Assembly (NCBI GenBank): GCA_965216325.1
Contig: OZ244160.1
Location: forward strand, 1,536,001 to 1,600,000
Direction: 5' to 3'
DNA from: Coraliomargarita sp.
GTDB lineage: Bacteria > Verrucomicrobiota > Verrucomicrobiia > Opitutales > Coraliomargaritaceae
DNA length: 64,000 nt
Below the pieces are notes generated by a model that searched no databases, had not been told where the DNA came from, and worked only from the letters and a program-made list of their open reading frames with translations. The translations under genes were made by a program, and so were the position numbers. This document shows, one piece after another, positions 366-17,949 of this stretch; positions within the stretch are counted from its first letter, which is position 1, and each line of letters begins with the position of its first letter.

Positions 366-1238
366 CTAGCCTTGTGAAGATTCGGCAACTCGACGCAAAT
401 ACGCGCCATAACCGGATTTATCTAACTTAGAAGCGATTTGAAGCAACTGCTCTTTATCGATGAACTTTGAAAAATAGGCCACCTCCTCAATGCAGCCGAT
501 CTTGGTATCCTGACGTTCTTCGATCACCCGTACAAACGTGGAGGCTTCATTGAGCGAGGCGAAGGTGCCGGTATCCAACCAAGCCACACCACGATTCAGC
601 ACCCCGACCTTGAGTTTCTGACGCTTGAGATAGACCTGATTGACCGTAGTGATCTCGTACTCGCCACGCGCCGAGGGCTCGATGGTTTCGGCGATCTCGA
701 CCACATCGTTGTCGTAGAAATACAGCCCCGGCACCGCATAGTTGGACTTGGGCTGGGCGGGTTTTTCTTCAATTGAAATCGCGTTCTTCTGCGCGTCGAA
801 CTCCACCACCCCATAGCGCTCGGGGTCGTGTACGGGAGCGGCAAAGATAACAGCACCCTCGGGGTCCGTGTGCTGGCGAAGCAATCGACCGAATCCGGAG
901 CCGTAAAAGATATTATCGCCGAGCACGAGGGCAACCTTGTCGTCGCCGATGAACTCCTTGCCGATGACAAAGGCCTGGGCCAGACCGTTCGGTACTTCCT
1001 GCACGGCATACTCGAAACGGCAGCCGAGCTCGGCACCGTCACCAAGCAGGCGCTGAAAGGCAGGCTGATCTTCGGGCGTGGTGATGATGAGGATCTCGTT
1101 GATCCCTGCCAGCATGAGAACGGACAGCGGATAGTAGATCATCGGCTTGTCGTAGATCGGCATGAGCTGCTTGGAAACAGCCAACGTGATGGGGTGGAGA
1201 CGGGTGCCGGCGCCGCCGGCGAGTATGATACCTTTCAT
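366..1238 (-). CDS. rfbA: glucose-1-phosphate thymidylyltransferase
   Basis: [44 protein letters not shown] motifs; 290 aa. Confidence 0.97.
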
Positions 1239-1306
1239 AAAATTTAAACCGTTAATTTACATAAATTGACGTTAATATTGAGCGCTCTACTCGTAACCTC
1301 AAGGCA

Positions 1307-2512
1307 TCATGATTTGCCAAGTCTTTCGAGCTGGTAATCACCAGAGAGGATACGCTGCCACCAATCTGTATTGTCCAGATACCATTGAACTGTTTTCCGG
1401 AAACCGGACTCGAAATCCTCTTTAGGCTCCCATCCAAGCTCATCGCGGATCTTAGTCGGATCAATCGCGTAGCGCATGTCGTGGCCGGGGCGGTCGGTGA
1501 CGAAGGTGATCAAATCCTGAAAGGATTTGGATGATGGATGACTGCTTGCGGATGACTGATCTGAAGGTGCGGCGCGGGACGCGCCTGCGCTACCTGAAAT
1601 CTCCTCTTCTAGAATTACACAGATTTTCTTAATCAAATCGAGGTTCGTCTGTTCGTTATTGCCACCGATATTGTAGGTTTCTCCAACACGGCCTTTCGCC
1701 AAAACTGTGTAGAGCGCCTCGGCATGATCGGTGACATAGAGCCAGTCACGAATATTTTCCCCCTTCCCGTAGACTGGTATCGGCTCACCTCGTAGGCACT
1801 TTAGGATCACGACGGGTATCAACTTTTCTGGGAACTGATAGGGACCATAATTATTGGAACAATTCGTCACCAACACAGGCAAGCCATAGGTGTCGCCCCA
1901 GGCACGCGCGAGGTGATCGGAAGCCGCTTTCGACGCCGAATAGGGGGAGTGTGGATCGTAAGGCGTGGTTTCGGAGAAGCCGGGAGCCTCCGCATCTAAA
2001 GAGCCGTAAACTTCGTCGGTGGAAACATGCAAAAATCGGAAGGATTTTTGCGAGGGCTGAGACTTGAGACCTGAGACTTGAGTGGGAAGGTGGGAAGGTT
2101 CTAAGGTGGGAAGGTCCGAAGCGTCGTTACGGGCGTGCGGAACGCTCGCCCCTACAGGCAAACTCCTCCAGTATTCGAGGCTGGCTTGGAGAAGGTTATA
2201 AGTGCCGACGACGTTGGTTTGGATGAACTCTCCGGGGCCATCGATTGAGCGGTCGACATGGCTCTCAGCTGCGAGGTGCATGACAGCATCCGGCTGGTGT
2301 TTTTCGAAAACTTCGGCGAGCGCAGTGGCATCGCAGAGATCGACCTGCTCAAAGGTATAATTCGGATGCTCGGCGAGATCGGCGAGCGACTCCACATTAC
2401 CGGCATAGGTCAGCTTATCGAGATTCACGACCTCACATGCTTTATTTTCAATGAGCAGTCGGACGAGATTGGAGCCGATAAATCCGGCTCCGCCTGTTAC
2501 TAATATTTTCAT
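1307..2512 (-). CDS. rfbB: dTDP-glucose 4,6-dehydratase with two in-frame repeat-derived insertions
   Basis: [52 protein letters not shown] motifs. Confidence 0.95.
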
Positions 2513-2807
2513 AGTAAAAATCGAAGATTTTTGATTAAAGATTACGGATTAGGGATGACTGATGGTGATTGCGGAGAAAAAGGGGTCATGCCGTATATGT
2601 CTATATTTACTGCGGCGAGGCGAAGAGTGGCACTGCGTGCCGTTAAGTGGGAGAGCCTGCGGCTCGGTTAAGTGGTTGGGTAGTTGAGTGGTTCAGCCGA
2701 TGGCTGAGTTAAGTGGTTGGGGCGTTGGGTGGTTGAGTGGGTGCGCGGCGCGCCCTTTGAGTGCCGCGTAAAAGCGCTTTGCGCCACGCGATCGTGCTCA
2801 CTGCCGG

Positions 2808-3166
2808 TTATATTGGGAGCTTTCGAACACGCGAGCGGTCGGGCTCATAGCTCACGAGCGCTCCAGATTTCAAATCGGACTCAAAGGTTTTAAAACATGC
2901 CAGAACGCTGCGCCCCAAGACGCAAGGGCCAAAATTTGGGACCGGATCTGAAAGACACTAGGGCTATCCAAGTGGGAGGCCGCTAGGATGGTGCCAAAGT
3001 CTAAATCGTTGGTAAGGATCACCGCCGTGCGTTGCTTGGCCCATTCCAGAATCTCAGTATCTGGCGCATCTGGCAGCCCGATCCGAGTCCAGTGCTGAAC
3101 CTCGTAATCCTTATCAAATATCGTCTCCCACTCTGGTGAGAGATTCATGTCGATCACAACTCTCAC
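2808..3166 (-). pseudogene. DUF5615/PIN-like toxin, frameshifted near 2920-2935
   Basis: MRVVIDMNLSP..D.EI..WA...ILTNDLDFG; the expected C-terminus (FESDLKSGALVSYEPDRSRVRKLPI*) continues in another frame to TAA at 2808. Confidence 0.7.
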
Positions 3167-3396
3167 GCAGATAACTCAAAGCTGAGTTCCTCTTCGCTCG
3201 CTCGCCATGCAGCGAAACGCAGACAGGCATCTATTTGCTCTGGGGTGATGTAGGGATACATCTCCAAGAGCCGCTCCCGCGAGGTTCCCGCGCCGAGCTG
3301 CCCGACTACACAGCCAACTGTAACCCGAGTGCCACGGATGCAGGGCTTGCCTCCCATAATAGAGGGGGCTGCGCAAATTTCGGGAAAGTGAATCAT
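3163..3396 (-). CDS. DUF433 family antitoxin
   Basis: PSIMGGKPCIRGTRVTV..YP.IT.EQI.ACL.FA; overlaps the PIN-like partner start; ATG at 3396. Confidence 0.85.
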   Translation of the reverse strand: MIHFPEICAAPSIMGGKPCIRGTRVTVGCVVGQLGAGTSRERLLEMYPYITPEQIDACLRFAAWRASEEELSFELSA

Positions 3397-3629
3397 AGTG
3401 GAAAGTCTGGAGGCCACTGCAATTAGGTCAAATGGAAAGAGCTTGTGAGGCTTCAAAGCGGGTCATGTCGTGAATTTTTCCAGAGGCGCTTCGTGGCGTG
3501 GACGCGAGTTTCGGTGGCGGCTGAGTGATTGGGGCGTTGGGTTGGGTGTGTGCCGCGTAAAGCGCTTTGCGCCACGCGGTTGAAGTTCCGCTACTTTGGA
3601 TAGGATTTAGACAGCGAAATTCCTCGCGA

Positions 3630-4058
3630 CTAGTAACTAATTACCTTCTGAAGCAGTTCAGGAACATGGTTCTGAGCCAAGTCCCACAGCGCGGCATCAT
3701 CGATGATATCATACCCGTGAGCCACCAAGTTCCGAAAGCCAATAATCTTACGATACTCGGGGATTCTTTGGGCGAGTCGTTCAGGATCCAAGCGCTCAAG
3801 GCGAACCAAAGCTTCACCGATAATCTGTTCTCTCATCTGCCCAGTGGGCACCCGACTCGATCCTCTCCTCTCAGGAGAGCTGACCATAAAGGGTCAGCCA
3901 TCTACGTGCATTTGCACTGCGTCAAATTCGCGCTCCAAGGCCAATTGGAGCAAACGATCGCAAAGAAAACTCTCAAAAGTTTTACCATCGACAAACCCGC
4001 TCAGCTCTTGGCAGGCAATCCGTATATCGATCAGTAATTTTTCGACGCTATGCGGCAT
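3630..4058 (-). pseudogene. HepT/DUF86 ribonuclease toxin interrupted by a 96-bp insertion
   Basis: MPHSVEKLLIDI...ALEREF | IIGEAL...FRNLVAHGY (Rx4H); insertion 3826-3921 carries an in-frame TGA. Confidence 0.8.
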
Positions 4059-4350
4059 AAACAAGTTGCTTGGAATGCTGGACTGCACGCTCAAAATAGG
4101 GATTCCGAAACTTGCGGTTGACAATCAAATCAACCGGTCGCTCAAGCAATCCCTCAAGATCGTCCTTCAGTCCCATAAATTGCTCAAAGGCGCCTTGGTA
4201 ATCCACACGTTGGAATTCGACCAAAAAATCAATATCGCTCTCTGCACTGAACCGTTCTGAAACAACAGAGCCGAACACAAAAAGTGACTGCACCAAATGC
4301 TTTTCGCAAAGAGCTTTAATGCCTACCTGATGTTGCTCAATAAGGTTCAT
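4048..4350 (-). CDS. MntA-type minimal nucleotidyltransferase antitoxin
   Basis: VFGS......SDIDFLVEF...L.RPVDL. Confidence 0.88.
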   Translation of the reverse strand: MNLIEQHQVGIKALCEKHLVQSLFVFGSVVSERFSAESDIDFLVEFQRVDYQGAFEQFMGLKDDLEGLLERPVDLIVNRKFRNPYFERAVQHSKQLVYAA

Positions 4351-4925
4351 TACCTATATCATTGTGTTGACCTGTGGGGTCCGTCAAGGGCCCCAAATGG
4401 GGTCATGTCATTAGCTTTGTGGGTGTTCCTGGATGATTCTGCGCAAGAACCTAGGGCTTCAGGGGAACGGCGGGGGTGAAGGGGAACCGTTCATTACGTG
4501 AATGGACGTTAATTCTTGGAGGATGGCGGGAGGCACTCAGTTTTAAGGGTTAAGCGATTAAGTTTTAAGCTGCTATAGGACTGAAGGGGGCTGGAGCGCT
4601 ACGCGGGTGAGGCTCTTAATCGTAATCCTACTCTTAATCTTAATCTCTGTAGCGGAGCTTTTCCAGAAGCCGGAAGACAGAGGTCAGAGGACAGACTATT
4701 TTGCTGGAAGTGGGCTTCTACTTTTGAGCGGCCGTAACGAGTTCCTCGTTCCGCTACGGATCAGACGGCCAACTCAGGCCTCAAGTCTCAAACTCATCCT
4801 TCCAAGTCTATCTTAATCTCTGTGGCGGGGGGGAACCGTTCATTGCGTGAATGGACGTTAATTCTTGGAGACTGGTGGTGCTGAGGGGGGGGGACAAGCG
4901 GAACAGAATTCAGAATGATCGATGC

Positions 4926-5267
4926 TCAACCGCAAGCGATCATCGCACGAACTTGCTCAGCAAGCGGCTGGATATCATGCATAACCGTGCTCCACAGGAT
5001 CCGATAATCGATCACATCATAACCGTGTGCTAAAACGTTGCGCATTCCGATAATTTTGCGCCCATTTTCAATCCGCTCAAAAGCAGCTTCATTAAGCCGC
5101 TCCAATCGCTTAAGCGCTTCTCCTATAATCTCCAATTCACGCTCTACAGCAACCTGCTGCAGGCGACTTTGATTGAATACATCCTCGGTAACGCCATGAA
5201 GGAACGATTCAATTTCTTCAATCGCTGTTAAAATATCGACGCAGAGCTTTTCTTCTTTAGGCGGCAT
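4926..5267 (-). CDS. HepT/DUF86 ribonuclease toxin
   Basis: AVERELEIIGEAL, MRNVLAHGY (Rx4H); ATG at 5267 overlaps the MNT stop. Confidence 0.88.
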   Translation of the reverse strand: MPPKEEKLCVDILTAIEEIESFLHGVTEDVFNQSRLQQVAVERELEIIGEALKRLERLNEAAFERIENGRKIIGMRNVLAHGYDVIDYRILWSTVMHDIQPLAEQVRAMIACG

Positions 5268-5559
5268 ATATTGACTCTTTATGTGCATCCACCTCTCTAC
5301 GGAAGATTGGGTTACGAATCGCGCTATCGCACACCAGATCTACTGGCCGCTTTAGCAAGGCCTCCAAGTCAGTCTTCAACCCCCAATAACAATCGAAAAA
5401 ATTCCGATCAGCTTGCCAATTAAACTCAACGAGAAAATCTGCATCGCTGTCAGGCATCTGTTCACCACGAACAATTGAGCCAAAGGCATACAGTGACTGC
5501 ACCGAGTGTTTTCTGCAGAGAGTTTTGATCTCTAATAGATGCGTGTCGTAAAGTCTCAT
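5257..5559 (-). CDS. MntA-type minimal nucleotidyltransferase antitoxin
   Basis: AFGSIVRGE..PDSDADFLVEF...LKRPVDL. Confidence 0.88.
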   Translation of the reverse strand: MRLYDTHLLEIKTLCRKHSVQSLYAFGSIVRGEQMPDSDADFLVEFNWQADRNFFDCYWGLKTDLEALLKRPVDLVCDSAIRNPIFRREVDAHKESIYAA

Positions 5560-6079
5560 TGTGGACTTAAGATGGCTGAGGAGTTCCTCGGCGTCAAACG
5601 TTGAAAACGTAAGAACTCAAGGGAACGGCGGAGCCGTTGATTGAAAGGTGAACCGTTAATTACGTGAATGGACGTTAATTTTGGGAGGGTGACGGGAGGC
5701 ACTCAGTTTTAAGGGTTAAGCGATTAAGTTTTAAGCTGCTATAGGACTGAAGGGGGCTGGAGCGCTGCGCGGGTGAGGCTCTTAATCGTAATCCTACTCT
5801 TAATCTTAATCTCTGTGGCTCTGGGGGAACCGTTCATTACGTGAATGGACGTTAATTTTTGAGGATGAAGGGACACCTAGTTTTTAGTCATTAGGTATTA
5901 GGGTCTAGGCGCTTAATCCTAATCTCTGAGGGAAGCTGAAATGGCTCCTGGGGGAAAGCGGCGACTTCGACTTGTTCAGTGTAGACTAGAGGCACGCTTC
6001 TACTTTGGCTGGGGCTGTCGAAACGAGTTCCTCGTTCCGCGGGCGGATCAGACGGCAGGCGAATACACGAAGTAGACTC

Positions 6080-6277
6080 CTAAGAAGCTACCGCAAACTC
6101 ACAAGCATTTGGCAACTCAGCATGCTTGGACGCATTGAGAATCTCAAGACCAACGATGTTACCGTCAGCATCATAATCCAAGATGACCCCAGGTCGATTT
6201 TCGTCACTCTCCACGATCGCCCGCTCGCTCAATACGATGCGCAATACATCGACTTCTGTATCGTAATTTACTTTCAT
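6080..6277 (-). CDS. DUF2283 family protein (putative antitoxin)
   Basis: MKVNYD.EVDVLRI...ESDE..PGVILDYDADGNIVGLEILNAS; ATGA overlap with upstream gene. Confidence 0.85.
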   Translation of the reverse strand: MKVNYDTEVDVLRIVLSERAIVESDENRPGVILDYDADGNIVGLEILNASKHAELPNACEFAVAS

Positions 6278-6537
6278 TTCAAATCCTCCCAATACTTAGA
6301 GACTTTACTGGTTTGGTAAGCGGTGACAACCACTTTAGGTTCCTTTGAATCATTGACTATGATCCGTAATAAATAGGTTTCACCGTGATCGTTGTTAAAG
6401 CGCGACTGATAACATTGCAGTCCATCCTTAGCGACCACCACTTGCTCTGGGTCCACCAAGGCAGCTTCTATCAGGGAAATTGATAGCCCACGCCGATCAA
6501 TTTCAGTCTGTGCGTGTTTTGATAAGGTAAAATTCAT
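6274..6537 (-). CDS. DUF4258 family protein (putative RelE-like toxin)
   Basis: LSKHA..EI.RRG.S...YLLRIIV...VVVTAY.TSK..KYW; paired with DUF2283. Confidence 0.8.
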   Translation of the reverse strand: MNFTLSKHAQTEIDRRGLSISLIEAALVDPEQVVVAKDGLQCYQSRFNNDHGETYLLRIIVNDSKEPKVVVTAYQTSKVSKYWEDLK

Positions 6538-6862
6538 TATTGTGGTCCCTGAAATAAAAGGATCGTTTCACGATAACGGCTGGGCAAAGTAAAAAGGGTG
6601 CTTGAGACCAAGCTGCAATTCAATGGGAGAACCTGGAGCCCCCAATGCGGTCACGTCATTACCTTTGTGGGTGTTCATGGATGATTCTGCGCAAGAACCT
6701 AGGGCTTCAGGGGAGACGGCGGGGGTGAAGGGGAACCGTTCATTACGTGAATGGACGTTAATTTTTGGAGGATGGCTTAGGGAAAGCGGAGCTTTTCCAG
6801 AAGCCGGAAGACAGAGGTCAGAGGACAGACTATTTTGCTGGAAGTGCGCTGCGCGTGTTGTG

Positions 6863-7153
6863 TCACAATCGGTTCTGCCAATAAGCCGGTTCGCGGTGGA
6901 GCGATGCGATTGCCAGAATTAAGATTTCGTCGTGCCTGATTTGATAGATGATTCCGTATGGAAACACCTTGGTTCGGCACCTACGGACATTGGCAGAAAG
7001 AAGATTCCATGCTTCTGGATAAGCGACGATTCTTTCCACTGAGTTTCTAATTTCTAATAAAAACCGCAGCCCCAAACCAATTTCTTTTTCTTCGTAGTCG
7101 GCAACCGCCTCATCCAACTCAAGTTCGGCGATGCTTAGAAATCGAACGTTCAC
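6863..7153 (-). CDS. RelE/ParE family toxin
   Basis: A..EL.EA..DYE....GLG..F...RRC....FPYGIIY....ILAIA.L.REP.YW. Confidence 0.88.
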   Translation of the reverse strand: MNVRFLSIAELELDEAVADYEEKEIGLGLRFLLEIRNSVERIVAYPEAWNLLSANVRRCRTKVFPYGIIYQIRHDEILILAIASLHREPAYWQNRL

Positions 7154-7383
7154 TGATTATATTTTCTCTCAAGACGCTCAAAAACGGCAGATGCCTCCAC
7201 CGAGGCGATCCGACCAGCATTATATGCGTTAATACGATCTTCGGATTCTGACGCCCATTTTTCGTCAATCGAAATTTGATGCGGTGCATCCAAGCTAGAG
7301 AGCAGTTTCTCCGCAAGACTGGCACGATCCAAGGCCGAAAGACCGAACACTTGATCTTCAAGTTCTTTAGTTAATGCACTCAT
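7150..7383 (-). CDS. addiction module antitoxin (TIGR02574-like)
   Basis: LS..DRA.LAE.LL.SLD......W..E...R; 4-nt overlap with the ParE-like toxin. Confidence 0.85.
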   Translation of the reverse strand: MSALTKELEDQVFGLSALDRASLAEKLLSSLDAPHQISIDEKWASESEDRINAYNAGRIASVEASAVFERLERKYNQ

Positions 7384-8220
7384 GTCTACAGGATCGGTGA
7401 ATACGTTATTTTGTCAATTCCGACCGGCGCTCAGGTTGGGGGAAGAGCAATTCAAAGCCCCAAATGGGGTCCTGTCATTACCTTTGTGGGTGTTCCTGGA
7501 TGATTCTGCGCAAGAACCTAGGGCTTCAGGGGAGACGGCGGGGGTGAAGTGGAACCGTTAATTACGTGAATGGACGTTAATTTTTGGGAAGGTGGCTCTG
7601 AAGGAAACGGCTGGAAGTGGGCTTCTACTTTGGGCTATGTGGCGGGCGCATCAAGTTGCGCCCCTACGGCTGTGCGGAGTCCTGCTACTTTCGATGAAGG
7701 TCCAAATGGGGTCCTGTCATTACCTTTGTGGTAGTTCATGGATGATTCTGCGCAAGAGCCTAGGGCTTCAGGGGAGACGGCGGGGGTGAAGGGGAACCGT
7801 TAATTACGTGAATGGACGTTAATTTTTGGGAAGGTGGCTCTGAAGGAAACGGCTGGAAGTGGGCTTCTACTTTGGGCTATGTGGCGGGCGCATCAAGTTG
7901 CGCCCCTACGGATGGGTTAAGCAAAGGGGTCCTGCTACTTTCGTGGGCCAAAGGGGTCAAACGCAAAATCTAAAGACAGGCGCTGCGTGCCGAGGAGTCG
8001 TCAAGGAGTTGAGTCGTTCGGCGGAGCCAGGCGGCTACGCCGAGTGGTGAGTTTTGACTGGTGAAGGGTGAAGATTGATGAACGATGGAAGACCACAGAG
8101 TGAAGTGGAGACGGTGTAAGCACCGCACTATAACGACTGCTGCGCTTTACGCATTCGACAAACTTATCGACGCGAGGCTTGAACATCGTCGTAGGTCTAT
8201 AGCCTAAGAGCGGGGAGAGG

Positions 8221-8604
8221 CTATTCCATAATTCGTTGAACTAATTGCTGACCGATCTCTTCTGCAAGCGTGCAATACAATCGAGCGTCGCGTATGCTAA
8301 CCTCGGGAAGATCCCCAGGATAGCGTCCATTTACGGCAAACAAAGTAAGTGTATCACAAAGATTCAATAGACCTTCTATTTCCCGCCCCTCAGACTGTTG
8401 CACAAGTCGATTAAGATCGTGAGTCCTTTCAATGTGTCTCCCGCGAGCAATGATTAGGGCCTTCAATAGCTTCTCCAGCATTTGCTGTAGGTGGAACATG
8501 CATGGCACTGTCAGTTCTTCCCCACTACGGATCAGGAGCTCAGCGACTCTCCAGTCCTCGTCGGCTTTATCCAGCCATTCTTGGATCTCCTCAGAAACCG
8601 CCAT
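8221..8604 (-). CDS. HEPN domain protein
   Basis: WL.KA.ED...A, FHLQQ..EK.LKA, THDL, RYPG. Confidence 0.88.
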   Translation of the reverse strand: MAVSEEIQEWLDKADEDWRVAELLIRSGEELTVPCMFHLQQMLEKLLKALIIARGRHIERTHDLNRLVQQSEGREIEGLLNLCDTLTLFAVNGRYPGDLPEVSIRDARLYCTLAEEIGQQLVQRIME

Positions 8605-8917
8605 AGATAAGTTTCCCCGTGTCAACTACTTCGCGCTCAATTGAACTCTGCCATTGAGAGCGTTTCTTGAAGACGCTTTCGTGATCGACTATAATATCTT
8701 TGGCGACTGGCAGCTTACGAGTCGCTCGATATGCTTTGGTGGTATTGGAGAGCTTGTCGCCGTTACCATCTTCAACCACAACGAGCAGGTCGATGTCGCT
8801 TCCAACTCTTGCAGTCCCCCTCGCACAGGAACCAAACAAATAAATCTGCTTCGGATGGAGAGCTCGAATCAGTTCTTGCACCGCTAAATCGATCGACGAT
8901 TGGATCTCTTTGGTCAT
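8591..8917 (-). CDS. minimal nucleotidyltransferase
   Basis: YLFGS.ARG....SDIDLLVV; start is 8917 or 8929. Confidence 0.87.
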   Translation of the reverse strand: MTKEIQSSIDLAVQELIRALHPKQIYLFGSCARGTARVGSDIDLLVVVEDGNGDKLSNTTKAYRATRKLPVAKDIIVDHESVFKKRSQWQSSIEREVVDTGKLIYGGF

Positions 8918-9316
8918 GTATTGATTCATACTGTGGCGATAGAAAGTGAATGCAAGCTTCGTGAGGAGGGCGGCGGAACCGGACGGCTGCGCCGTTGATT
9001 GAAGGGGGAACCGTTCATTACGTGAATGGACGTTAATTTTTGGAGGATGACGGGAGGCACTCAGTTTTAAGGGTTAAGCGATTAAGTTTTAAGCTGCTAT
9101 AGGACTGAAGGGGGCTGGAGCGCTACGCGGGTGAGGCTCTTAATCGTAATCCTACTCTTAATCGTAATCTCTGTGGCTCTGGGGGAACCGTTCATTACGT
9201 TAATGGACGTTAATTCTTGGGAAGGTGGCTCTGGCTGGGGAAGCGAAGCTTTTCCAGAGGCCGGAAGACAGAGGTCAGAGGACAGACTATTATGCTGGAA
9301 GTGGGCTTCTACTTGC

Positions 9317-10579
9317 TCAGGGCTGGTAGGCGTTCGGGTGACGGGCGTGCGGAACGCTCGCCCCTACGGTTGCGCGGAGGCTGGCTTCAAAGACTTTCCG
9401 CGGTTGCCAGCTGAGTTCGCCACGAAGCTTGGAGGAATCAATCGCGTATCGAAGGTCGTGGCCTGGACGGTCAGACACCAAAGTTATGAGGCCCTCATAA
9501 CATTGGTGAGATGATTGATGATCGATGGTAGATGACTGATCTGAAGGTGCGGCGCGGGACGCGCCTGCGCTACCTGAAATCTCCTCCTCTAGAATTACAC
9601 AGATTTTCTTAATCAAATCTAGATTCGTCTGTTCGTTATTGCCGCCGATATTATAGGTTTCTCCAACACGACCTTTCGTCAAAACAGTGTAGAGTGCTTG
9701 GCAATGATCTTCGACAGCAATCCAATCGCGGATGTTTTCACCGGTGCCATAGACCGGAATCGGTTCCTGCTTGAGGCAACATTGGATGACTTTCGGGATG
9801 AGCTTTTCGGGATGCTGGCCAGCACCGTAGTTGTTGCTGCAACGTGTGATGATCGCCGGCAAGCCATAGGTCGTGTGCCACGACTGGACCAGGTGATCGG
9901 CGGCGGCTTTCGATGCGGCGTAGGGCGAACTCGGATTCAGGGGCGAGTCCTCCGTAAAGGGTGGGTCGCTTGGGCCGAGAGAGCCGTAGACTTCGTCGGT
10001 GGAGACGTGCACAAATCGGAACGATTTTTGCGAGGGCTGAGACTTGAGACCTGAGACTTGAGTGGGAAGGTGGGAAGGTTCTAAGGTGGAAAGGTCCGAA
10101 GCGTCGTTACGGGCGTGCGGAACGCTCGCCCCTACAGGCAAACTCCTCCAATACTCGAGACTCGCTTGCAGAAGATTATACGTGCCGACGACGTTGGTTT
10201 GGATGAACTCTCCGGGGCCATCGATTGAGCGGTCGACGTGGCTCTCAGCGGCGAGGTGGAGCACGGCGTGGGGCTTGAAATGCTGAAAGATCTCACTGAG
10301 TGATTTCTCCGAGAATGGTCGATGAGCGGTGGTCGATGCTTGAGCAGTATGGGTTTGCTCGGTGGCGGGCGCCGCAAGCAACGCCCCTACGTTTGGTTGG
10401 CCGAGATCGATGCGTTCGAACTGGTAGTTTGGGTGGCCTTTGAGGTCTTTAAGCGCCTCTGGATTGGCGGCGTAGGTGAGCTTATCCAAATTCAGGACCT
10501 CACAGCCCTTTTCCTCAATTAACATCCGGACCAAATGCGAGCCGATGAAGCCCGAGCCGCCAGTGACTAAAATACGCAT
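9317..10579 (-). CDS. rfbB: second dTDP-glucose 4,6-dehydratase with three in-frame repeat insertions and a REP-derived C-terminus
   Basis: [38 protein letters not shown]; ends [18 protein letters not shown] read from a REP. Confidence 0.88.
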   Translation of the reverse strand: MRILVTGGSGFIGSHLVRMLIEEKGCEVLNLDKLTYAANPEALKDLKGHPNYQFERIDLGQPNVGALLAAPATEQTHTAQASTTAHRPFSEKSLSEIFQHFKPHAVLHLAAESHVDRSIDGPGEFIQTNVVGTYNLLQASLEYWRSLPVGASVPHARNDASDLSTLEPSHLPTQVSGLKSQPSQKSFRFVHVSTDEVYGSLGPSDPPFTEDSPLNPSSPYAASKAAADHLVQSWHTTYGLPAIITRCSNNYGAGQHPEKLIPKVIQCCLKQEPIPVYGTGENIRDWIAVEDHCQALYTVLTKGRVGETYNIGGNNEQTNLDLIKKICVILEEEISGSAGASRAAPSDQSSTIDHQSSHQCYEGLITLVSDRPGHDLRYAIDSSKLRGELSWQPRKVFEASLRATVGASVPHARHPNAYQP

Positions 10580-10908
10580 GTGAGCAACGAAGTTGCAGTT
10601 GAGTGGTTCAGCCTACGGCTGAGTTGGGTGGTTGAGTGCCGCGTAAAGCGCTTTGCGCCACGCGGTTGAAGTGGGAGACTCTTAATCGTAATCCTACTCT
10701 TAATCGTAATCTCTGTGGCTCTGGGGGAACCGTTAATTACGTGAATGGACGTTAATTTTTGGAGGATGGCTTTGCGGGGAAAGCGGAGCTTTTCCAGAGG
10801 CCGGAAGACAGAGGTCAGAGGACAGACTATTTTGCTGGAAGTGGGCTTCTACTTTTGGCTCTGTGGCGGGCGCATCAAGTTGCGCCCCTACGGCTGTGCG
10901 GAGTCCTG

Positions 10909-11280
10909 CTACTTTCGATGCGGAATATACTCTCGGATTTGCGTCGTGCTGACGATCCAGAGTTTACCGTTCATAGTCGTCACCTGGCTGAGTCCACGCA
11001 GCAAGACATCCAATGCTTGCAAGATCTCGGAATACGTGGGGGCTTTGGACGGACGCAATACGATGATGCCTGCATACTTCTCCGGCGGATACTGCACTGG
11101 ATTCGAAAAGTCTAAGTCCAGCGTGACTAAAATGCGCGCTTCGACACGGCAAACTTCAATCAAAACCTCATCAATTGTCCCGGCGAGTTGCTGCGCCGTC
11201 ACCGAGCTCACGTCATAACCTGCTGCAGTCAGCAAAGAAAGGCCGCGCCGACCAAGGTTTTCATCTAACTTAAATTTCAT
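10909..11280 (-). CDS. DUF5615/PIN-like toxin
   Basis: MKFKLDENL...D.......EARILVTLDLDFS...GIIVLR. Confidence 0.85.
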   Translation of the reverse strand: MKFKLDENLGRRGLSLLTAAGYDVSSVTAQQLAGTIDEVLIEVCRVEARILVTLDLDFSNPVQYPPEKYAGIIVLRPSKAPTYSEILQALDVLLRGLSQVTTMNGKLWIVSTTQIREYIPHRK

Positions 11281-11332
11281 CGCGTCGACGATTAACAAGC
11301 ACTTGAGCGGATCGACTCAACGGGGGCTTGAA

Positions 11333-11575
11333 CTAGGCAGTCTGCCCGAGCGGAACTTCGATGTAGCGCTCGCGCGACATCTCAGAACCATAAGCGATAC
11401 ATGCATAGATGTCTTCGCGCTCTAACTGTGGATAGTCTTCGAGGATCTCCTCCAAAGACATCTCAGTAAGCATATCCAGCACCAATGAGACCCAGATTCG
11501 ATGCCCCTTAATGCACGGCTTTCCGAAACAGACATCCGGATGAATCGAGATGCGGTCTAGATATTTTGGGTTCAT
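11333..11575 (-). CDS. DUF433 family antitoxin
   Basis: RISIHPDVCFGKPCIKGHRIWVSLVLD...YPQLEREDI.AC.AY. Confidence 0.9.
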   Translation of the reverse strand: MNPKYLDRISIHPDVCFGKPCIKGHRIWVSLVLDMLTEMSLEEILEDYPQLEREDIYACIAYGSEMSRERYIEVPLGQTA

Positions 11576-12174
11576 GTTACGTTAAAAATGGCAAAGGCAG
11601 GGTAAATGTCAATTGAGAGCCTGCGGCTTGAAGGGGAACGAGCCCCCAATGGGGTCATGTCATTACCTTTGTGGGTGTTCCTGGATGATTCTGCGCAAGA
11701 ACCTAGGGCTTCAGGGGAGACGGCGGGGGTGAAGGGGAACCGTTCATTACGTGAATGGACGTTAATTTTTGGAGGATGAAGGGACACCTAGTTTTTAGTC
11801 ATTAGGTATTAGGGTCTAGGCGCTTAATTTTAATCTCTGCGGCGGAGCTTTTCCAGAGGCCGGAAGACAGAGGTCAGAGGACAGACTATTTTGCTGGAAG
11901 TGCGCTTCTACTTTTGGCTATGTGGCGGGCGCATCAAGTTGCGCCCCTACGGCTGTGCGGAGTCTGCTACTTTCGATGCGGGGGCCCCAATGCGGTCACG
12001 TCATTAGCTTTGTGGGTGTTCATGGATGATTCTGCGCAAGAACCTAGGGCTTCAGGGGTGGTGGCGGAGCCGACGTGTGCGGGTGAACCTTTAATGAACA
12101 TTGATTCTTAGAGGGCAGTGGGCAGAAGTGCGTCCACCGCTCGACAAGCTCGCGACCTTCGGCAAGTGGAGCAC

Positions 12175-12333
12175 CTACGGATTTCGCTTTTTAAGCTGTT
12201 TAGCCAAAGCCAAAGCCTGAGCATTCCATTCCAACTTCTGGCGGAAGCTTAGCTTGCGGTCCGCATCACGGCGAGCTGCCTCTGCTCCGCTCCAAGTTGC
12301 TACCTTCCAACTGGCTGAATTCCCTTCACTCAT
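12175..12333 (-). CDS. 52-aa partner of the nucleotidyltransferase (putative TA component)
   Basis: Not in ORF track. MSEGNSASWKVATWSGAEAARRDADRKLSFRQKLEWNAQALALAKQLKKRNP*; start overlaps the upstream stop. Confidence 0.6.
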   Translation of the reverse strand: MSEGNSASWKVATWSGAEAARRDADRKLSFRQKLEWNAQALALAKQLKKRNP

Positions 12334-12829
12334 GGCCCTCATTCAATTGGTCCAACTCCTCTAAATCAAGCAAATCACGTGGCCGCCCGGCCTGCTGTTT
12401 CATCGCACGCAAGTGCTCTAGGCCAACCACTGGAATTACCGTGTCCGCCCCTAGCTCATACTCAACACGCTCCGCATACATATCGGAGAAAGCAAAGGGT
12501 TCCTCGACGAAAATATCGACGGGGCAATCCATCAGTTGCTCACTGACCAGCTGATAAACCTGCATCCCTTTCTCTTGCTGCCAAATCCGTCGTTTCTCGG
12601 GGTCTGCAAAGTCCATCAAATCTACCGGAATGTTTGGACGATACCCATAGCGTGCAAAGAGTTCGAGTGCGCGTCGCGGGTTATTGCCATCGAGTGCGAT
12701 CACCAAATCGAGGTCACGTGTCACTCGGAGATAGCCATGCGCCAAAACCGCCAGCCCGCCAACCACCAGATAGCGAACGCCTGCTGCGTTCAGCGCGGCA
12801 AACAACTTTTCTAAATGTTCGGGGTTCAT
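12326..12829 (-). CDS. nucleotidyltransferase family protein (DUF6036-like)
   Basis: YLVVGGLAV.AHG..R.T.DLD...L..MK..AGRP.D..D. Confidence 0.85.
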   Translation of the reverse strand: MNPEHLEKLFAALNAAGVRYLVVGGLAVLAHGYLRVTRDLDLVIALDGNNPRRALELFARYGYRPNIPVDLMDFADPEKRRIWQQEKGMQVYQLVSEQLMDCPVDIFVEEPFAFSDMYAERVEYELGADTVIPVVGLEHLRAMKQQAGRPRDLLDLEELDQLNEGHE

Positions 12830-12996
12830 TCTGACAGTGATGAATCGCGAGATACGCTCATAGTTTAAGCTGAAGCGACGAGGATAAAGGAATTACTACA
12901 TTCGGCGGGCGTCGCAATCAACGCCCCTACGATTTCACTTAAAACCTAATTACTTAACACTTAAGACTATCGACCGACCTATTAGCAGCTTTGCTG

Positions 12997-14511
12997 CTAA
13001 TAGGTCGGTCGATACAAATTCCTACTTTTCTGGGAGCGGTAGTCATTCGGCTCTTTCGCGATCGCTTCAAAGTTGAGCGGGCAGTCGTTCAACTCCTGCC
13101 AACGACTGGCAGCCGTGCCCCAGGCCTCGGCGGCAACGTCGGTAATAATCGCGAACTGGTGTTCGGAGAAATTCGCTTTCTCGGCATAGAGCTTCAGCTC
13201 CCCCGTAGCCCCTCCACGCACTGGATGTACATCGAGCCACACCAAGTCGGAGTCCTCATGCGTGTTCCCCGGCAGATAAAACTGGCGAACATCCTCACCG
13301 AGTTGCAGCTCGGCTTTACAAAAGCCCATCTTTTTCAACACAAAGTGAAAGTCCGTCCATAGGTGATTGCCGGAATCGGCACGCTCGACCTCCGCCACAA
13401 ACCAGTTTTTCAAATAGAGCGCATTCCTGGTATCGGCTCGCGCCTGGAAAGAGTCATTCAGCATCGCACGCAAAGAAGCTGCGGTGATTTTTTGACCACG
13501 CAAAATGAAGAGCACGATGACAAAGCCGAAGCCAAAGAAAATGGGTAGGTAACGCCCTTGATCTGCGAAGAAAAGCAGCGCTCCAACCAGTGCGACCAGG
13601 GAGCATCCATAGAGCACCATCACCGTGTTGCGGTGCGAGAGGCCCGTGCGCATGAGCCGGTGGTGAATATGCTGCTTGTCGGGACGAAAGAGCGGCAGGC
13701 CCCGAATTCCCCGACGAATCATCGCGAACGAAACGTCGATGATCGGCAGCGCCAGCGCCAAGACCGGAGCCAGTAAGGCCGCAGCGACCGCGCCCTTCTG
13801 CGAATTCAGCAAGGCCAGCGCGGCAATCACATAGCCGATCATGTAGGCACCCGAATCCCCCATGTATACCTTGGCTGGTGGAAAATTATGAAAGAGAAAT
13901 CCTAGAATCGCTCCGATCATTCCGAGCGCCATAATGAGCGAAAAGCCCCCCCCTCCAGTGGAATAGCTGAGATAGGCCAAGAGCACCATCAACATGAAGC
14001 CCACGCCGCCAGCCAAGCCATCGAGCCCATCAATCAAATTGATCAGGTTCATCACTGCCACAAACCAGAAAACAGTGATCCCCATCGAGAGTGGTCCAAA
14101 GGCGATCATGACATCGGTAAAGGGGATCATGAAGCGCTCGATCGACAAGCCACAGTAATAGGCCATCACACCCAAGCCAATCTGCGCCAGCAACTTGAGC
14201 TTCGCACCCAAGGGCCGCAGGTCATCAATAAAGCCTAGCAAGAAGGCACCCGCCCCCCCCACAAACACCGCATAGTGCATGAGTGTTTTGTTGTCTTTAT
14301 GATCCAACAACAGAAAGCACAGCAGATAGGTAACGCCAAAGCCAGCCACGAGCCCCACACCGCCGATGCGCGGAATGACACCGGTGTGCGTGTGGTGATG
14401 CTGTGGCTGTGCGGTGTTACCCTGCGCAAAACCAACGGCCAACAGACCATGAATCACGATCCACGCCGTGAGACAGCCAAGTAAGATGAAGAATAGGAAA
14501 GGGAAGAGCAT
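12997..14511 (-). CDS. WecA/MraY-family undecaprenyl-phosphate GlcNAc-1-phosphate transferase with C-terminal extension
   Basis: PRIGG, GFIDD, NLINLIDGLDGLA, NFPPAKVYMGDSG, PDKQHIHH; multiple TM segments. Confidence 0.92.
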   Translation of the reverse strand: MLFPFLFFILLGCLTAWIVIHGLLAVGFAQGNTAQPQHHHTHTGVIPRIGGVGLVAGFGVTYLLCFLLLDHKDNKTLMHYAVFVGGAGAFLLGFIDDLRPLGAKLKLLAQIGLGVMAYYCGLSIERFMIPFTDVMIAFGPLSMGITVFWFVAVMNLINLIDGLDGLAGGVGFMLMVLLAYLSYSTGGGGFSLIMALGMIGAILGFLFHNFPPAKVYMGDSGAYMIGYVIAALALLNSQKGAVAAALLAPVLALALPIIDVSFAMIRRGIRGLPLFRPDKQHIHHRLMRTGLSHRNTVMVLYGCSLVALVGALLFFADQGRYLPIFFGFGFVIVLFILRGQKITAASLRAMLNDSFQARADTRNALYLKNWFVAEVERADSGNHLWTDFHFVLKKMGFCKAELQLGEDVRQFYLPGNTHEDSDLVWLDVHPVRGGATGELKLYAEKANFSEHQFAIITDVAAEAWGTAASRWQELNDCPLNFEAIAKEPNDYRSQKSRNLYRPTY

Positions 14512-14635
14512 CGCGAAGCGATGGTCTGGCAAAGCCAGACAAGGTGTGAGGTTTTAGGGTTTAATTGTTAGGGATTAGGAACTGAACCGTTTAGACTGTA
14601 GAAGCAATTGCTTTTTAGGGGCTAGTCCTTACTTT

Positions 14636-15388
14636 CTAGAGCTTGCTTTGACGAGAACGAATTAGCCCCTGTAACATCTTCGCGACTTGTCCACACTCGT
14701 CTATGAGACCTGACAATGCCTCGACATCGCAATCATACACTTCGGCTGCGATCTCCAGTTGCGTGGACAATTCTGCTGCCGATGCTTTGGCAATGTTCAA
14801 AAAGCGGATGGACTCTCTGAGGGCATCACGCGCCTCGCCTTCAGCGAAGCTCCAAATGGGGTCATGTCATTAGCTTTGTGGGTGTTCATGGATGATTCTG
14901 CGCAAGAACCTAGGGCTACAGGGGAACGGCGGGGGTGAAGGGGAACCGTTCATTACGTGAATGGACGTTAATTTTTGGAGGATGGCTTTGCGGGGAAAGC
15001 GGAGCTTTTCCAGAGGCCGGAAGACAGAGGTCAGACTATTTTGCTGGAAGTGCGCTTCTACTTTGGGCTCTGTGGCGGGCGCATCAAGTTGCGCCCCTAC
15101 GGCGGTGCGGAGTCCTGCTACTTTCGTGGGCCAAAGGGGTCAAACGCAAAATCTAAAGACAGGCGCTGCGTGCCGAGGAGTCGTCAAGGAGTTGAGTCGT
15201 TCGGCGGAGCCAGGCGGCTACGCCGAGTGGTGAGTTTTGACTGGTGAAGGGTGAAGATTGATGAACGATGGAAGACCACAGAGTGAAGTGGAGACGGTGT
15301 AAGCACCGCACTATAACGACTGCTGCGCTTTACGCATTCGACAAACTTATCGACGCGAGGCTTGTAAATCTCGATAGCCTTCACTCAC
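14636..15388 (-). pseudogene. four-helix-bundle (TIGR02436/IVP/Avd-like) gene whose middle is replaced by a repeat mosaic
   Basis: N-terminus GTG-SEGYRDLQ at 15388-15362; C-terminus AEGEARD...RFLNIAKASAAELSTQLEIA...KMLQGLIRS..* at 14845-14636. Confidence 0.8.
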
Positions 15389-15451
15389 CACGTGCCTATC
15401 CTAATCCCTAACAACTAAGTCCTAAAAACTCCAGCATGGCAGCTTCGCTGG

Positions 15452-15468
15452 CATGCTGCCGCCCTTGG
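15452..15468 (-). promoter_or_regulatory. ops/JUMPstart-like element
   Basis: Minus strand CCAAGGGCGGCAGCATG resembles ops GGCGGTAGnnTG; lies upstream of and co-oriented with the polysaccharide genes. Confidence 0.4.
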
Positions 15469-15675
15469 TCGCACGGGACATTCCGAAACCAATTTTGGAG
15501 GTGCGCTTGCTATGAATGGATAGCGAATGGCGAAAAATGACTGTTAAAACGCGCTTGAGGCGCGGAGGGAGCGGCAGGGCCGCGATTGAAAATTAAAGAT
15601 TTAAAATTTCAGAGTTACAAAGTTCGGGCAATGCGAGTGGAGTCTTCAATATTCAATCGATAATCTGAAATAAGT

Positions 15676-16236
15676 CTAAATCACACTCTCACTGGAGTCG
15701 TCGGAGGATAATAATTCGGCCCCGCCGAGCACTGCAGTGACCACGGGCAGCAGTTTGACCATGCGCGCCTGCCAATTGATGAGGGTGCCCAAGCGTTGTT
15801 CGGCGTGCTTTCGCTGCGCGGGATCTGGCTCTGCCTCGATTAAGTCGCGGATGCCTTGAATCCTCGCAGCTCCGGACTGCAGGTGCGGATTGAACTGGTC
15901 CTGAATGAAGCCGCGCACCAAACGCTTGATCGAGAGCTCCGGCACGTAGTGATCCTTACGACTTCCAGCCACATACTGCACCTTCACCGCACCAAACTGG
16001 CGTAGCAGCTTTAAGCCCTGGCTGACGGAACCCTTGCTGATTCCCAAGCGCTCAACCTGATCGTCAAAGGTGAGCGGACGCTCCGCACAATACAGCACCC
16101 CATAGATCTCCCCCACCGAGCGCGGTAAGCCAATCAAATTGGCGGCACGGACAAACATCTCGACCATCGCGACTTCCCAGGGCTGCAAGGCTCTGGAGGG
16201 CGCTTCTTCAAAGGGAACTGTGGGCTCCGAGGGCAT
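15676..16236 (-). CDS. GbsR/MarR family transcriptional regulator
   Basis: GLPRSVGEIYGVLY....LTFD....L.ISKGSVSQGLK.L...G.RKD.Y; likely ATG at 16236. Confidence 0.85.
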   Translation of the reverse strand: MPSEPTVPFEEAPSRALQPWEVAMVEMFVRAANLIGLPRSVGEIYGVLYCAERPLTFDDQVERLGISKGSVSQGLKLLRQFGAVKVQYVAGSRKDHYVPELSIKRLVRGFIQDQFNPHLQSGAARIQGIRDLIEAEPDPAQRKHAEQRLGTLINWQARMVKLLPVVTAVLGGAELLSSDDSSESVI

Positions 16237-16336
16237 GAGGAGGGTCCGCGCAGTGGATCCGTTATTAGTCTTTAGGTGTTGGGCATTAGGAGGGCAGGAA
16301 CACTGCAGAACCACTATTCATGAACAATCGCGCCAA

Positions 16337-16360
16337 TTTGTTCAAGTTTTTTTGAACAAA
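16337..16360. promoter_or_regulatory. inverted repeat, candidate operator
   Basis: TTTGTTCAA-N6-TTGAACAAA upstream of the regulator gene. Confidence 0.45.
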
Positions 16361-16499
16361 CCATACAACTAATGCATTTAGCGGCAAAGCTCAAGAGGGC
16401 TTCACCCTAGAATACCGAGGACGCAATCGAGCATTGCGACCACCCACACCAGCGGGCTTCGCAAGCAAAGCCCCTGCTATGTTCGTTTCTGTCAAGAGT

Positions 16500-16790
16500 G
16501 TAGAAGCGTGTGAGTGTTTTTACATAAGATAAGTGGTTTGTTTTGATTGCAATCGTCTTTGAGCGTCCACCGCGCATGGCCTCGGAGTTTCGATGATCCG
16601 GGATAACCTGCTATCCGTGTTTCTGAGTGTTTCTCAGAAGAGCACACTATGACCTATCCATTGGGTCATTCAAAAGCTTGGTGGCGAAGTGGCCTATTCT
16701 ACAAAATCGTTGTGTTGGCAACAGGGGCTTGGTCAGACTCACTCCGCACAAAGGAAAACTGCAAAAGAACGTTAAAATCAGAGGGTGAAG
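16500..16790 (-). ncRNA. candidate bridge RNA/seekRNA (boundaries approximate)
   Basis: Contains AAGCCCCT and TTGTAG (both target halves) around a hairpin, plus a 7-nt match to the IS end. Confidence 0.65.
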
Positions 16791-16811
16791 GCCTTTAGCG
16801 TTGGTTCGGAC

Positions 16812-17900
16812 TTATGGGTTTTGTCTGCTTATCAGTCCGAAGTCTTCGAGACTGCATTGGCCAGTGCGTATGCGCCACCAGTCCACGGCGAACTGCCGGG
16901 CGATGGCCACGGCAATTTTCTTGCGGGTCGCCTTACTGGTGGTCTCGTCGCTGAGCTTGGCCTGCCATTTACGCACCCCACTGTAGCCGGGATTCCACCG
17001 GATCAATAACCAGGCGCACTCTTGTAGCATATGCCGCAGGCGGGGACTGCCGTGTTTGTTGATCGAGCCCTGGAAACGCCGATTTGCACTAGTGTCTTCG
17101 CTTGGGCACAGTCCGGTAAAGGAACTGACCGCCTTGCGGTTGTTGAATCGCTTCCAGTTGCAGACCTCACGTTCGATCTGTTCATAGAGGACCACCCCCA
17201 TGCCTTTAGGCAGCACCCGTTCCGGCTCGAGCGCTTCGATACGTTCTTCGATGTTGCTGATTAGCTCGCTAAAGTGCAGGCAGTTTAACCGCAGTGGCTC
17301 CAGCAGGCTGATCAAAAAATCGTCGAGCTGTTCGAGTAGCTGCATCCATTTGCGCGGCTTCCACCAGCCGCTGGGTAAGGGTTGATCGTAATACAGTCCC
17401 AGACTCTTACCACGCTTGGCCGCACGGCCACGTTCTTTGACGAAGCTTTCACGCTGCCGGGTTAGGCTGCGGTGACGCTCTTCTTGCTCGCTGGGCACAC
17501 GCACGACACTGAAGCTGCGGTCATTGCCCCGCAGATAGCCGTCCAGACTCAAGACCATTTGCAACGCATCACGCGCGTCGGTCTTTACCTTCTTACCATG
17601 AGTGTCCCAGTTGATCGGGCGGATTACGTGGTTGTTCACGCCCATCGCCTTGAGCTTGCGGTGCAGGCTGTAACCAAAAGGACCGGCCTCGTAGCAACTT
17701 TGCAACTGCTCGCACTGAGTGCTCAGCTGCTTAATCCATCGAAGGAAGATATCAGGCTTCATGCGCTTCGCGCGTGAAGGGGCGCTGCTATCGATCTTCA
17801 TGACCACCACGTAGGTGCTCGCATGCACGTCAATGCCAAGCTTGATTACTGTGCCCAGTGCGTTCTTAGTTGTCCGTGTAGATGATGTGGGGTTTTGCAT
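16812..17900 (-). CDS. IS110-family DEDD transposase/recombinase
   Basis: GIDVH, YEAG, KTDARDA (DEDD) and GLCPSEDTSA...GSINKHG C-terminal domain. Confidence 0.93.
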   Translation of the reverse strand: MQNPTSSTRTTKNALGTVIKLGIDVHASTYVVVMKIDSSAPSRAKRMKPDIFLRWIKQLSTQCEQLQSCYEAGPFGYSLHRKLKAMGVNNHVIRPINWDTHGKKVKTDARDALQMVLSLDGYLRGNDRSFSVVRVPSEQEERHRSLTRQRESFVKERGRAAKRGKSLGLYYDQPLPSGWWKPRKWMQLLEQLDDFLISLLEPLRLNCLHFSELISNIEERIEALEPERVLPKGMGVVLYEQIEREVCNWKRFNNRKAVSSFTGLCPSEDTSANRRFQGSINKHGSPRLRHMLQECAWLLIRWNPGYSGVRKWQAKLSDETTSKATRKKIAVAIARQFAVDWWRIRTGQCSLEDFGLISRQNP

Positions 17901-17949
17901 AAGTTTATCATCATAGCACTTCCGTGCTCCTGATAAACGCCCATGTCAT

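Follow-up and report, generated by a model that had tools for sequence, protein, structure and literature searches.

We analysed a 64,000-nucleotide window of the genome of Coraliomargarita sp. (GenBank GCA_965216325.1, contig OZ244160.1), in which eight two-gene modules of toxin-antitoxin (TA) type, M1-M8, are separated by a mosaic of repeated blocks within a surface-glycan locus. The window corresponds to G000:C1:1536001-1600000 of a single 3.06-Mb contig, G000 being the genome under study, and coordinates without a prefix are positions in the window. We estimate a probability of roughly 0.55 that the locus is a TA hotspot in which a mosaic of orphan repeat arms supports homologous exchange of modules, probably with occasional joining at the end of a terminal inverted repeat (TIR). 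The array is genuine, differs from one relative to the next and recurs across the family. An earlier note on this DNA had proposed a gene-capture and shuffling platform. Comparison of relatives does show modules coming, going and being joined anew, and the joints coincide with the edges of blocks. The idea of a dedicated platform, as worded, was not supported: no single site occurs at both module ends, the blocks are orphan arms of several unrelated selfish elements, and two of the toxins are dead.

A repeat mosaic between co-oriented modules

A glycan cluster on the minus strand extends from ~G000:1512000 to rfbA and rfbB1, and the array is located at its upstream end. Every module is on the minus strand, in agreement with the co-orientation described previously. 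With letters denoting repeated spacer blocks, the first half of the array reads L-G-M1-G-M2-A-B-C-H-D-E1-J-B-M3-K-B-C-H-B-I-J-M4-A-B-D-M5-A-B-E-A-B-E-F-M6 and the second half K-B-C-H-B-D-E1-rfbB2-L-G-H-B-D-E-M7-A-B-I-D-E-A-M8-wecA-half four-helix-bundle gene-A-B-D-E-F. Besides the modules, the array contains a further copy of rfbB (rfbB2), a gene resembling wecA and one half of a four-helix-bundle gene.

Segmentation by local alignment reproduced exactly the earlier block counts (A7, B12, C3, D6, E5, F2) and yielded H4, G3, I2, J2, K2 and L2. Twenty shuffles gave best scores of 22-29 against block thresholds of 24-215, and only the short E3 word (26 against a threshold of 24) was not clear of chance. 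Repeated blocks make up 3574 of the 4900 spacer bases (73%), spacers are 170-840 bp long, and full-length blocks are restricted to this locus within the genome. The blocks all run with one polarity and for the most part keep to a common order, A-B-[C-H-B]-[I]-D-E-F, in which B is the hub or branch point; none is inverted. The same blocks do recur from spacer to spacer, but less freely shuffled than had been claimed. A self-comparison found block copies in direct orientation only, the inverted matches being two hairpins and the four-helix-bundle arms.

All spacers are given on the plus strand. A GGGGTC-headed TIR-like end lies at 2582-2605, and a similar copy is found upstream of an M2 homologue in the relative G002. 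The composite spacers are A-B-C-H-D-E1-J-B (4390-4870), K-B-C-H-B-I-J (5625-6056), A-B-D (6638-6846) and A-B-E-A-B-E-F (7457-8181), the last built on a 242-bp tandem unit and ending in an F whose head is a TIR of a second type of TIRYT, a tyrosine transposase. They are followed by K-B-C-H-B-D-E1 (8983-9367), in which a repetitive extragenic palindrome (REP) replaces the 3′ end of rfbB2, L-G-H-B-D-E (10597-10917), which overlaps the M7 stop codon, A-B-I-D-E-A (11642-12058) and A-B-D-E-F (14849-15365), which occupies the place of the 5′ half of the four-helix-bundle gene.

Signs of exchange within the locus

Most modules lie between direct repeats and would therefore be open to ordinary homologous recombination. 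The flanking repeats measure 32 bp at M1 (two copies of block G, 2758-2790 and 3547-3578), 195 bp at M3 (185 identical), 44 bp at M4, 151 bp at M5, 52 bp at M6, 140 bp at M7 and 192 bp at rfbB2. The repeat at M7 takes in the end of its toxin gene at 10909, including the last 15 coding bases, and four other copies of E end in 9-15 coding bases of the same gene. Because close homologues of this toxin mostly stop at the same position, these four ends are most simply gene-derived, which bears out the earlier suggestion that a gene end had been copied into the mosaic; one 90%-identical homologue shares the last residues. Some caution is due, since CTACTTT-like words also terminate other blocks and the tail of the homologue in the relative G075 differs.

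The blocks themselves point to gene conversion. The seven copies of A offer 28 informative site pairs, of which 14 fail the four-gamete test; if the boundary column is set aside, 8 of 21 do so. Moreover, rfbB2 (9317-10579, minus strand) contains two patches nearly identical to rfbB1 around insertions, with 50-59 matches per 60 columns there against 20-43 per 60 elsewhere, and these patches probably arose by gene conversion. Across the family, RfbB proteins (L048, L050, L051, L057 and L129, where L-numbers denote the loci read) have in-frame insertions of repeat origin in two loops whose positions are constant, although the insertions themselves vary; those of the two G000 paralogues are almost alike.

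Gain, loss and re-joining of modules in relatives

Exchange between organisms was followed in relatives' genomes (G002, G003, G006, G026, G075, G101 and G109) and, on contigs, in the sequencing runs X2, X4, X5 and X7. The earlier note had recommended comparing the rfb-wecA interval in relatives, and module gain and loss are visible there, both as an empty site in G002 and as re-joined modules in X5 and X7. In G002, which is of the same genus, ~240 bp separate wecA from rfbB where G000 has M8 and M7; other short contigs of this genome place an M8 homologue next to an M2 homologue and carry TA runs between their own repeated blocks. X5 and X7, marine runs from two studies whose contigs, at 88% likeness, may stem from related species, share the joints 6635->2683, 10669->10902 and 4822->12161. 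In these contigs M4 ends at 6635, where A starts in G000, and joins block L, G is fused directly to the end of M7, and a stretch of H and J is fused to the end of M8. A further joint in X5 alone, 7443->15134, brings the M5 upstream region to the head of F instead of A. F-M6-K was kept joined in both, with 8 differences in ~955 bases. Depth over wecA is low in X5 and X7, an observation given no weight here.

In G101, which belongs to a different genus, no fewer than five TA-type modules with Pfam support surround wecA-rfbB; the block set there is another one, and the array includes TIRs. Similar TA runs occur in G006 and G109. The blocks are species-specific, and homologues of M7 and M4 in the glycan loci of G075 stand without any match to them. 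We surveyed 20 wecA loci out of 74 genomes with a located wecA, two of the 20 having been chosen by TA matches and only hand-picked small open reading frames (ORFs) having been scanned. Pfam-supported TA genes were found downstream of wecA at seven loci and M8-like or nucleotidyltransferase-like ORFs without a match at two; none were seen at eight, and three ended early. In an unselected count, 7 of 46 HepT matches in relatives lay no more than 10 kb from wecA, where 0.34 at most would be expected. Upstream of wecA (L045-L063), the four-helix-bundle gene is of different types in different relatives or is lacking, as if exchangeable.

The main blocks are single arms of one-gene elements

Elsewhere in G000 there are intact one-gene elements bracketed by repeats, and each main block is one arm of such an element. 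The mosaic is accordingly a stack of lone arms that lack both partner arms and genes. The head of block A is the TIR that brackets an intact gene for a 336-aa Y1 HUH protein (G000:2644050/2645123), and A-type TIRs lie beside homologues of this gene at 10 of 11 relatives' loci when 4 mismatches in 15 are allowed. The protein has a C-terminal extension of ~190 aa, where subclass 2.1 enzymes bear an HTH domain; the extension has no Pfam or NCBIfam match. The head of block F matches second-type TIRs at G000:289828-292491 and around a homologue in G003. Both heads fit the GGGG[AT][CG]A[CG]-type TIR motif, whose consensus was taken from the available parts of PMC3733652 and 10.1101/279083; most read GGGGTCAT or GGGGTCAA, with a loose fit at the last position. 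A Y1 HUH gene between inverted TIRs is present at G000:2644050-2645123 and 289828-292491, whereas in the array the TIRs are direct, their heads share one orientation throughout, and the gene is absent. A putative 492-aa transposase gene lies between F-type TIR-like heads at G000:C1:290901-292404 and 963212-964799, once beside a TIRYT gene, and large genes lie between outward-facing A- and F-type TIRs at L071 (G026:C8:4000-22000).

Block B is one arm of an inverted pair (G000:1944185) around a GxxExxY gene at G000:1944286, and blocks D and H are arms (G000:1568388 and 1507819) of pairs around four-helix-bundle genes at 1568454 and 1507914. Blocks C and I are heptamer runs that look arm-like by eye. 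Block E contains a genome-wide GTAG REP with 114 genomic matches to its 9-base tag and a hairpin of -9.1 kcal/mol; between rfbB1 and 15700, all 10 GTAG tags are on the minus strand. The nearest Y1 HUH gene, RAYT-like (25639-26235, plus strand), has its own palindromes and not the blocks of the array.

Several other identities were considered and set aside. Block B matched an antisense terminator-like pattern, and we considered it as either a terminator or a mini-attC; what it corresponds to, however, is the GxxExxY arm. The E3 word, tried as a third TIR family, occurred in 1 of 251 genomes of the order (G000 itself) and in two unrelated viral coding matches. A lagging-strand bias of REPs in support of HUH action was rejected (73 of 135 outside the array, p 0.39). 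We found no plasmid match to blocks A-F, and the exact B pattern occurred at one locus in metagenome contigs and at none in genome contigs. An Rfam scan of positions 1-30000 returned one chance match only. The inverted ends and target-site duplication around cargo that mark a composite transposon or miniature inverted-repeat transposable element are absent from the array.

A fixed outer end on block A

The seven copies of A agree from ~9-12 bases upstream of GGGG inward, and beyond this point they meet seven different neighbours: in four cases the upstream region of a TA pair, at a distance of 38-100 bp from its start codon, in two a copied M7 end and in one the middle of a four-helix-bundle gene. 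The 3′ half of this last gene survives at 14636-14848 (minus strand), cut at the outer end of A, with its inverted heptamer arms preserved at 14548-14580 and 15399-15431. A fixed end with changing neighbours is the mark of a transposon end, and the likeliest agent may be the cognate TIRYT acting in trans. The TIR-like motif is present at 15 of 58 TA loci of the family compared with 5 of 60 random G000 windows, an imperfect background.

The modules and neighbouring genes

Recognised adjacent toxin and antitoxin families were assigned by Pfam in seven of the eight modules, as the earlier note had named them. M1 (2808-3399) pairs a DUF433 gene (3163-3399) with a frameshifted DUF5615 gene (2870-3166 as called, with the homologous frame running to about 2808). 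M2 (3630-4350) pairs MNT (4048-4350) with a HepT toxin gene interrupted near 3825-3920 by an insertion of ~96 bp with a stop. As the X2 and X4 contigs match both stretches without difference, neither the frameshift nor the interruption is a read error. The others are M3 (4926-5559, MNT and HepT), M4 (6080-6537, DUF4258 and DUF2283), M5 (6863-7383, a TIGR02574 antitoxin, or Unstab_antitox, called above cut-off, and ParE), M6 (8221-8929, MNT and HEPN) and M7 (10909-11575, DUF433 and DUF5615).

M8 (12175-12829) is the exception to the earlier assignments. Its nucleotidyltransferase has sub-cut-off matches only and its partner is a conserved 55-aa ORF without a family, and we infer rather than observe that it is a TA pair; its closest named homologues are from Opitutales and Coraliomargarita. 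At L084 an M8 homologue is flanked by rfbB-like pieces that end at REPs (3300-3570 and 4270-4340), the downstream piece matching the REP-fused end of rfbB2 in G000.

G000 has five short MNT genes and two DUF433 genes, every one of them in this locus. PADLOC matched only the MNTs, to PDC-S09 candidate models. We found no viral relative of the M6 MNT, and a promoter scan was uninformative (9 sites against 9.5 in shuffles).

The left boundary of the array is rfbB1 (dTDP-glucose 4,6-dehydratase, 1307-2512, minus strand), which carries two repeat-derived in-frame insertions. The wecA-like glycosyltransferase family 4 gene (12997-14511, minus strand) falls below the TIGR02380 cut-off. Its stop codon is overlapped by a hairpin with a 22-bp stem (12968-13014), and a hairpin of different sequence occupies the same place in G002. 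Further along, an IS110-family element (16452-17950, 17950-19570 region) with ~8 further genomic copies adjoins a 292-bp REP tandem (5.6 copies). At its far end (G000:C1:1513700-1517700), the glycan locus holds more TA-type genes, two MNT pairs and one PIN pair, accompanied by brief matches to blocks E and H in reversed orientation; one of these pairs has a G002 homologue. A mirrored mosaic bracketing the locus from that end was not accepted, the matches being at most 49 bp and mostly 80-95%.

Proposed mechanism and competing explanations

We propose that, throughout the family, small passengers such as TA pairs, four-helix-bundle genes and GxxExxY genes land in the wecA-rfbB interval. Single arms of several selfish elements would have piled up there in one orientation and then been homogenised by gene conversion into a strain-specific mosaic; of this, the sequence shows the identity and polarity of the arms and incompatible single-nucleotide polymorphisms (SNPs). 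Direct repeats of 30-195 bp would then allow homologous recombination to delete, duplicate or swap a module with part of its spacer, within the chromosome or with incoming DNA, an outcome of the kind seen in related strains. Now and then, new joints would probably form at the outer end of the block A TIR through the cognate TIRYT in trans, by insertion or adjacent deletion. Such deletions may halve dispensable genes, the four-helix-bundle gene for instance, but stop upstream of TA operons, where loss of expression would be costly. Tightly trimmed TA operons resembling a cassette array could result, without a dedicated recombinase or site.

Several observations weigh against this reading. Homologous recombination alone leaves the fixed outer end of block A and the single polarity of the array unexplained, and we found no demonstration of TIRYT activity in the literature searched, where the enzyme figures meaningfully in two papers. 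Flanking matches are only 16 bp at M2 and 24 bp at M8, and addiction cannot now retain M1 and M2, both of whose toxins are broken. The exchange was seen in contigs only, with no event within one population, and metagenome joints at 88% likeness may belong to other organisms or repeats. Lastly, DUF433 is weakly enriched near wecA (2 of 49 against 0.38 expected), and kin are not independent.

The TIRYT might instead drive a dedicated cassette system, in which the HUH enzyme nicks the outer ends of direct TIRs, frees single-stranded circles of spacer and module and re-inserts them at other TIRs, with TA pairs as favoured cargo. The fixed end of A facing seven neighbours, four of them TA upstream regions, would suit such a system, as would the joining of the M5 upstream region to an F head in X5, four contigs with loose ends before an F-head TIR, the common orientation of the array's TIR heads, an intact cognate gene, and the presence of TIRs right beside large passenger genes in G026 and within the array of G101. 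It is nonetheless doubtful: M3, M6 and M8 lack an upstream TIR, 3′ joints share no common site, only 15 of 58 family TA loci have the TIR-like motif, the TIRYT gene is 1.1 Mb from the array, and REPtrons are reported, in the part of 10.1101/279083 available, not to move as units. Just as doubtful is the broader claim that TIRYT in trans on orphan TIRs captures, circularises and reorders promoter-bearing TA modules at the glycan locus, forming a single-stranded-DNA counterpart of the integron across Opitutales, with arms of domesticated selfish elements for its sites. The M7 and M4 homologues that G075 carries without these blocks count against any dedicated platform and would sit more comfortably with passive clutter, that is, independent insertion of TA pairs and arms in a tolerant locus, the mosaic recording local duplication without helping modules to move. 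Species-specific blocks, two decayed toxins and mosaics that also fill glycan-locus gaps around ordinary genes (L059, L054) point the same way. Passive clutter is still unlikely, if a little less so, since in related strains the same modules meet other members of this block set, the joints lying at block edges, and most modules are flanked by long, near-perfect direct repeats.

A decayed integron array, a cluster of attC sites lacking an integron-integrase (CALIN) whose attC sites have degenerated and which is served by the genome's own intI, would account for the co-oriented two-gene units. The earlier note had reported no integrase, which is true locally, but the genome holds many Y1 HUH genes and three intI over cut-off (811175, 2766502 and 2854084), all more than 0.7 Mb from the array, with their own cassette arrays that include ParE-type pairs. 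The integrons at these loci (L143-L145) have short attC sites and TA cassettes and, at two of them, a long ORF that seems to resemble a group II intron protein. A covariance model built from 8 native attC sites, replacing a hand-made scan that found almost nothing even in native arrays, recovered 4 further, untrained sites beside intI genes and found none at positions 1000-17000 (best 5.4 bits, E 6.6), in accordance with the absence of attC noted before. Neither intI nor attI adjoins the array, and block B is a GxxExxY arm. The array is not a CALIN by the definition in the part of PMC4889954 available, and this explanation, largely refuted, is the least probable of all. Misassembly of a repeat-rich region is scarcely more credible. 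None of the listed contigs spans the array and M5 is absent from the listed X2 and X4 pieces, leaving the module order without independent confirmation. Against this, single-copy depth is flat, SNPs distinguish the block copies, comparable arrays are present in other genomes, and X2 and X4 contigs cover M1-M4, M6, M7 and the M8-wecA stretch with their junctions, seven unique stretches with zero substitutions and a lone 1-base gap (X4). The earlier request for an assembly check is thus answered at the level of the junctions. By cumulative GC skew the G000 chromosome falls into parts of ~0.7 and 2.35 Mb, which may point to a large inversion or an assembly join.

If homologous recombination alone acts, the locus is a tidy, ordinary hotspot. 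It also supplies a candidate TIRYT substrate and event, in that one TIR end meets seven neighbours, including a mid-gene position, with an intact cognate enzyme in the genome; this makes the role of domesticated transposases directly testable. Moreover, four seemingly unrelated repeat classes (TIRs, GxxExxY arms, four-helix-bundle arms and REPs) are shown here to be arms of one-gene elements, able to merge into a local recombination substrate. The hotspot would offer a non-integron route by which TA or defence-like pairs gather and turn over beside likely phage-receptor genes.

Comparison with known systems

No prior description of this arrangement was found in the literature searched, a search that lay outside most subscription journals and supplements. 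Integron arrays and CALINs with TA cassettes, going by the part of PMC4889954 available, are likewise co-oriented, tightly trimmed, TA-rich and strain-variable, but the present array lacks attC, attI, an adjacent intI and the rule of one site per cassette. The hepta- and octanucleotide multicopy elements of Geobacter metallireducens have short-period arms, often as inverted pairs, between and inside genes; they are described in the accessible portion of PMC2700814 as putative regulatory sites, with no link there to TA arrays. In the TnpA-REP/prochlorosin preprint (10.1101/2020.03.09.984088), seen in part, a subclass 2.1 enzyme is proposed to diversify neighbouring genes by recombination, although later no strong evidence for or against causation is reported. 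Transposase genes and fragments are interspersed in that system, whereas only ends are found in the array.

The closest likenesses are to REP and TIR mosaics. As in mosaics of REPs, bacterial interspersed mosaic elements (BIMEs) and REPINs, there are short intergenic palindromes with linkers, GTAG-tagged REPs, local homogenisation and REPs inside coding regions. A BIME unit, in contrast, is an inverted REP pair, and here 10 of 10 GTAG tags point one way; REPs are also a minor part of the array, whose mosaic alternates with TA pairs and stays within a single locus. TIRtron/TIRYT elements are described in PMC3733652 (Di Nocera 2013) and as subclass 2.1 of TnpA-REP in 10.1101/279083, both available in part. 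As in those accounts, blocks A and F start with GGGGWSAS-type TIRs, and cognate Y1 HUH genes lie between inverted TIRs in G000, but the TIRs of the array are single, direct, gene-less and fused to the arms of other elements and to TA operons. Taken together, the array is a variant of BIME/TIRtron mosaics and only doubtfully a dedicated cassette platform.

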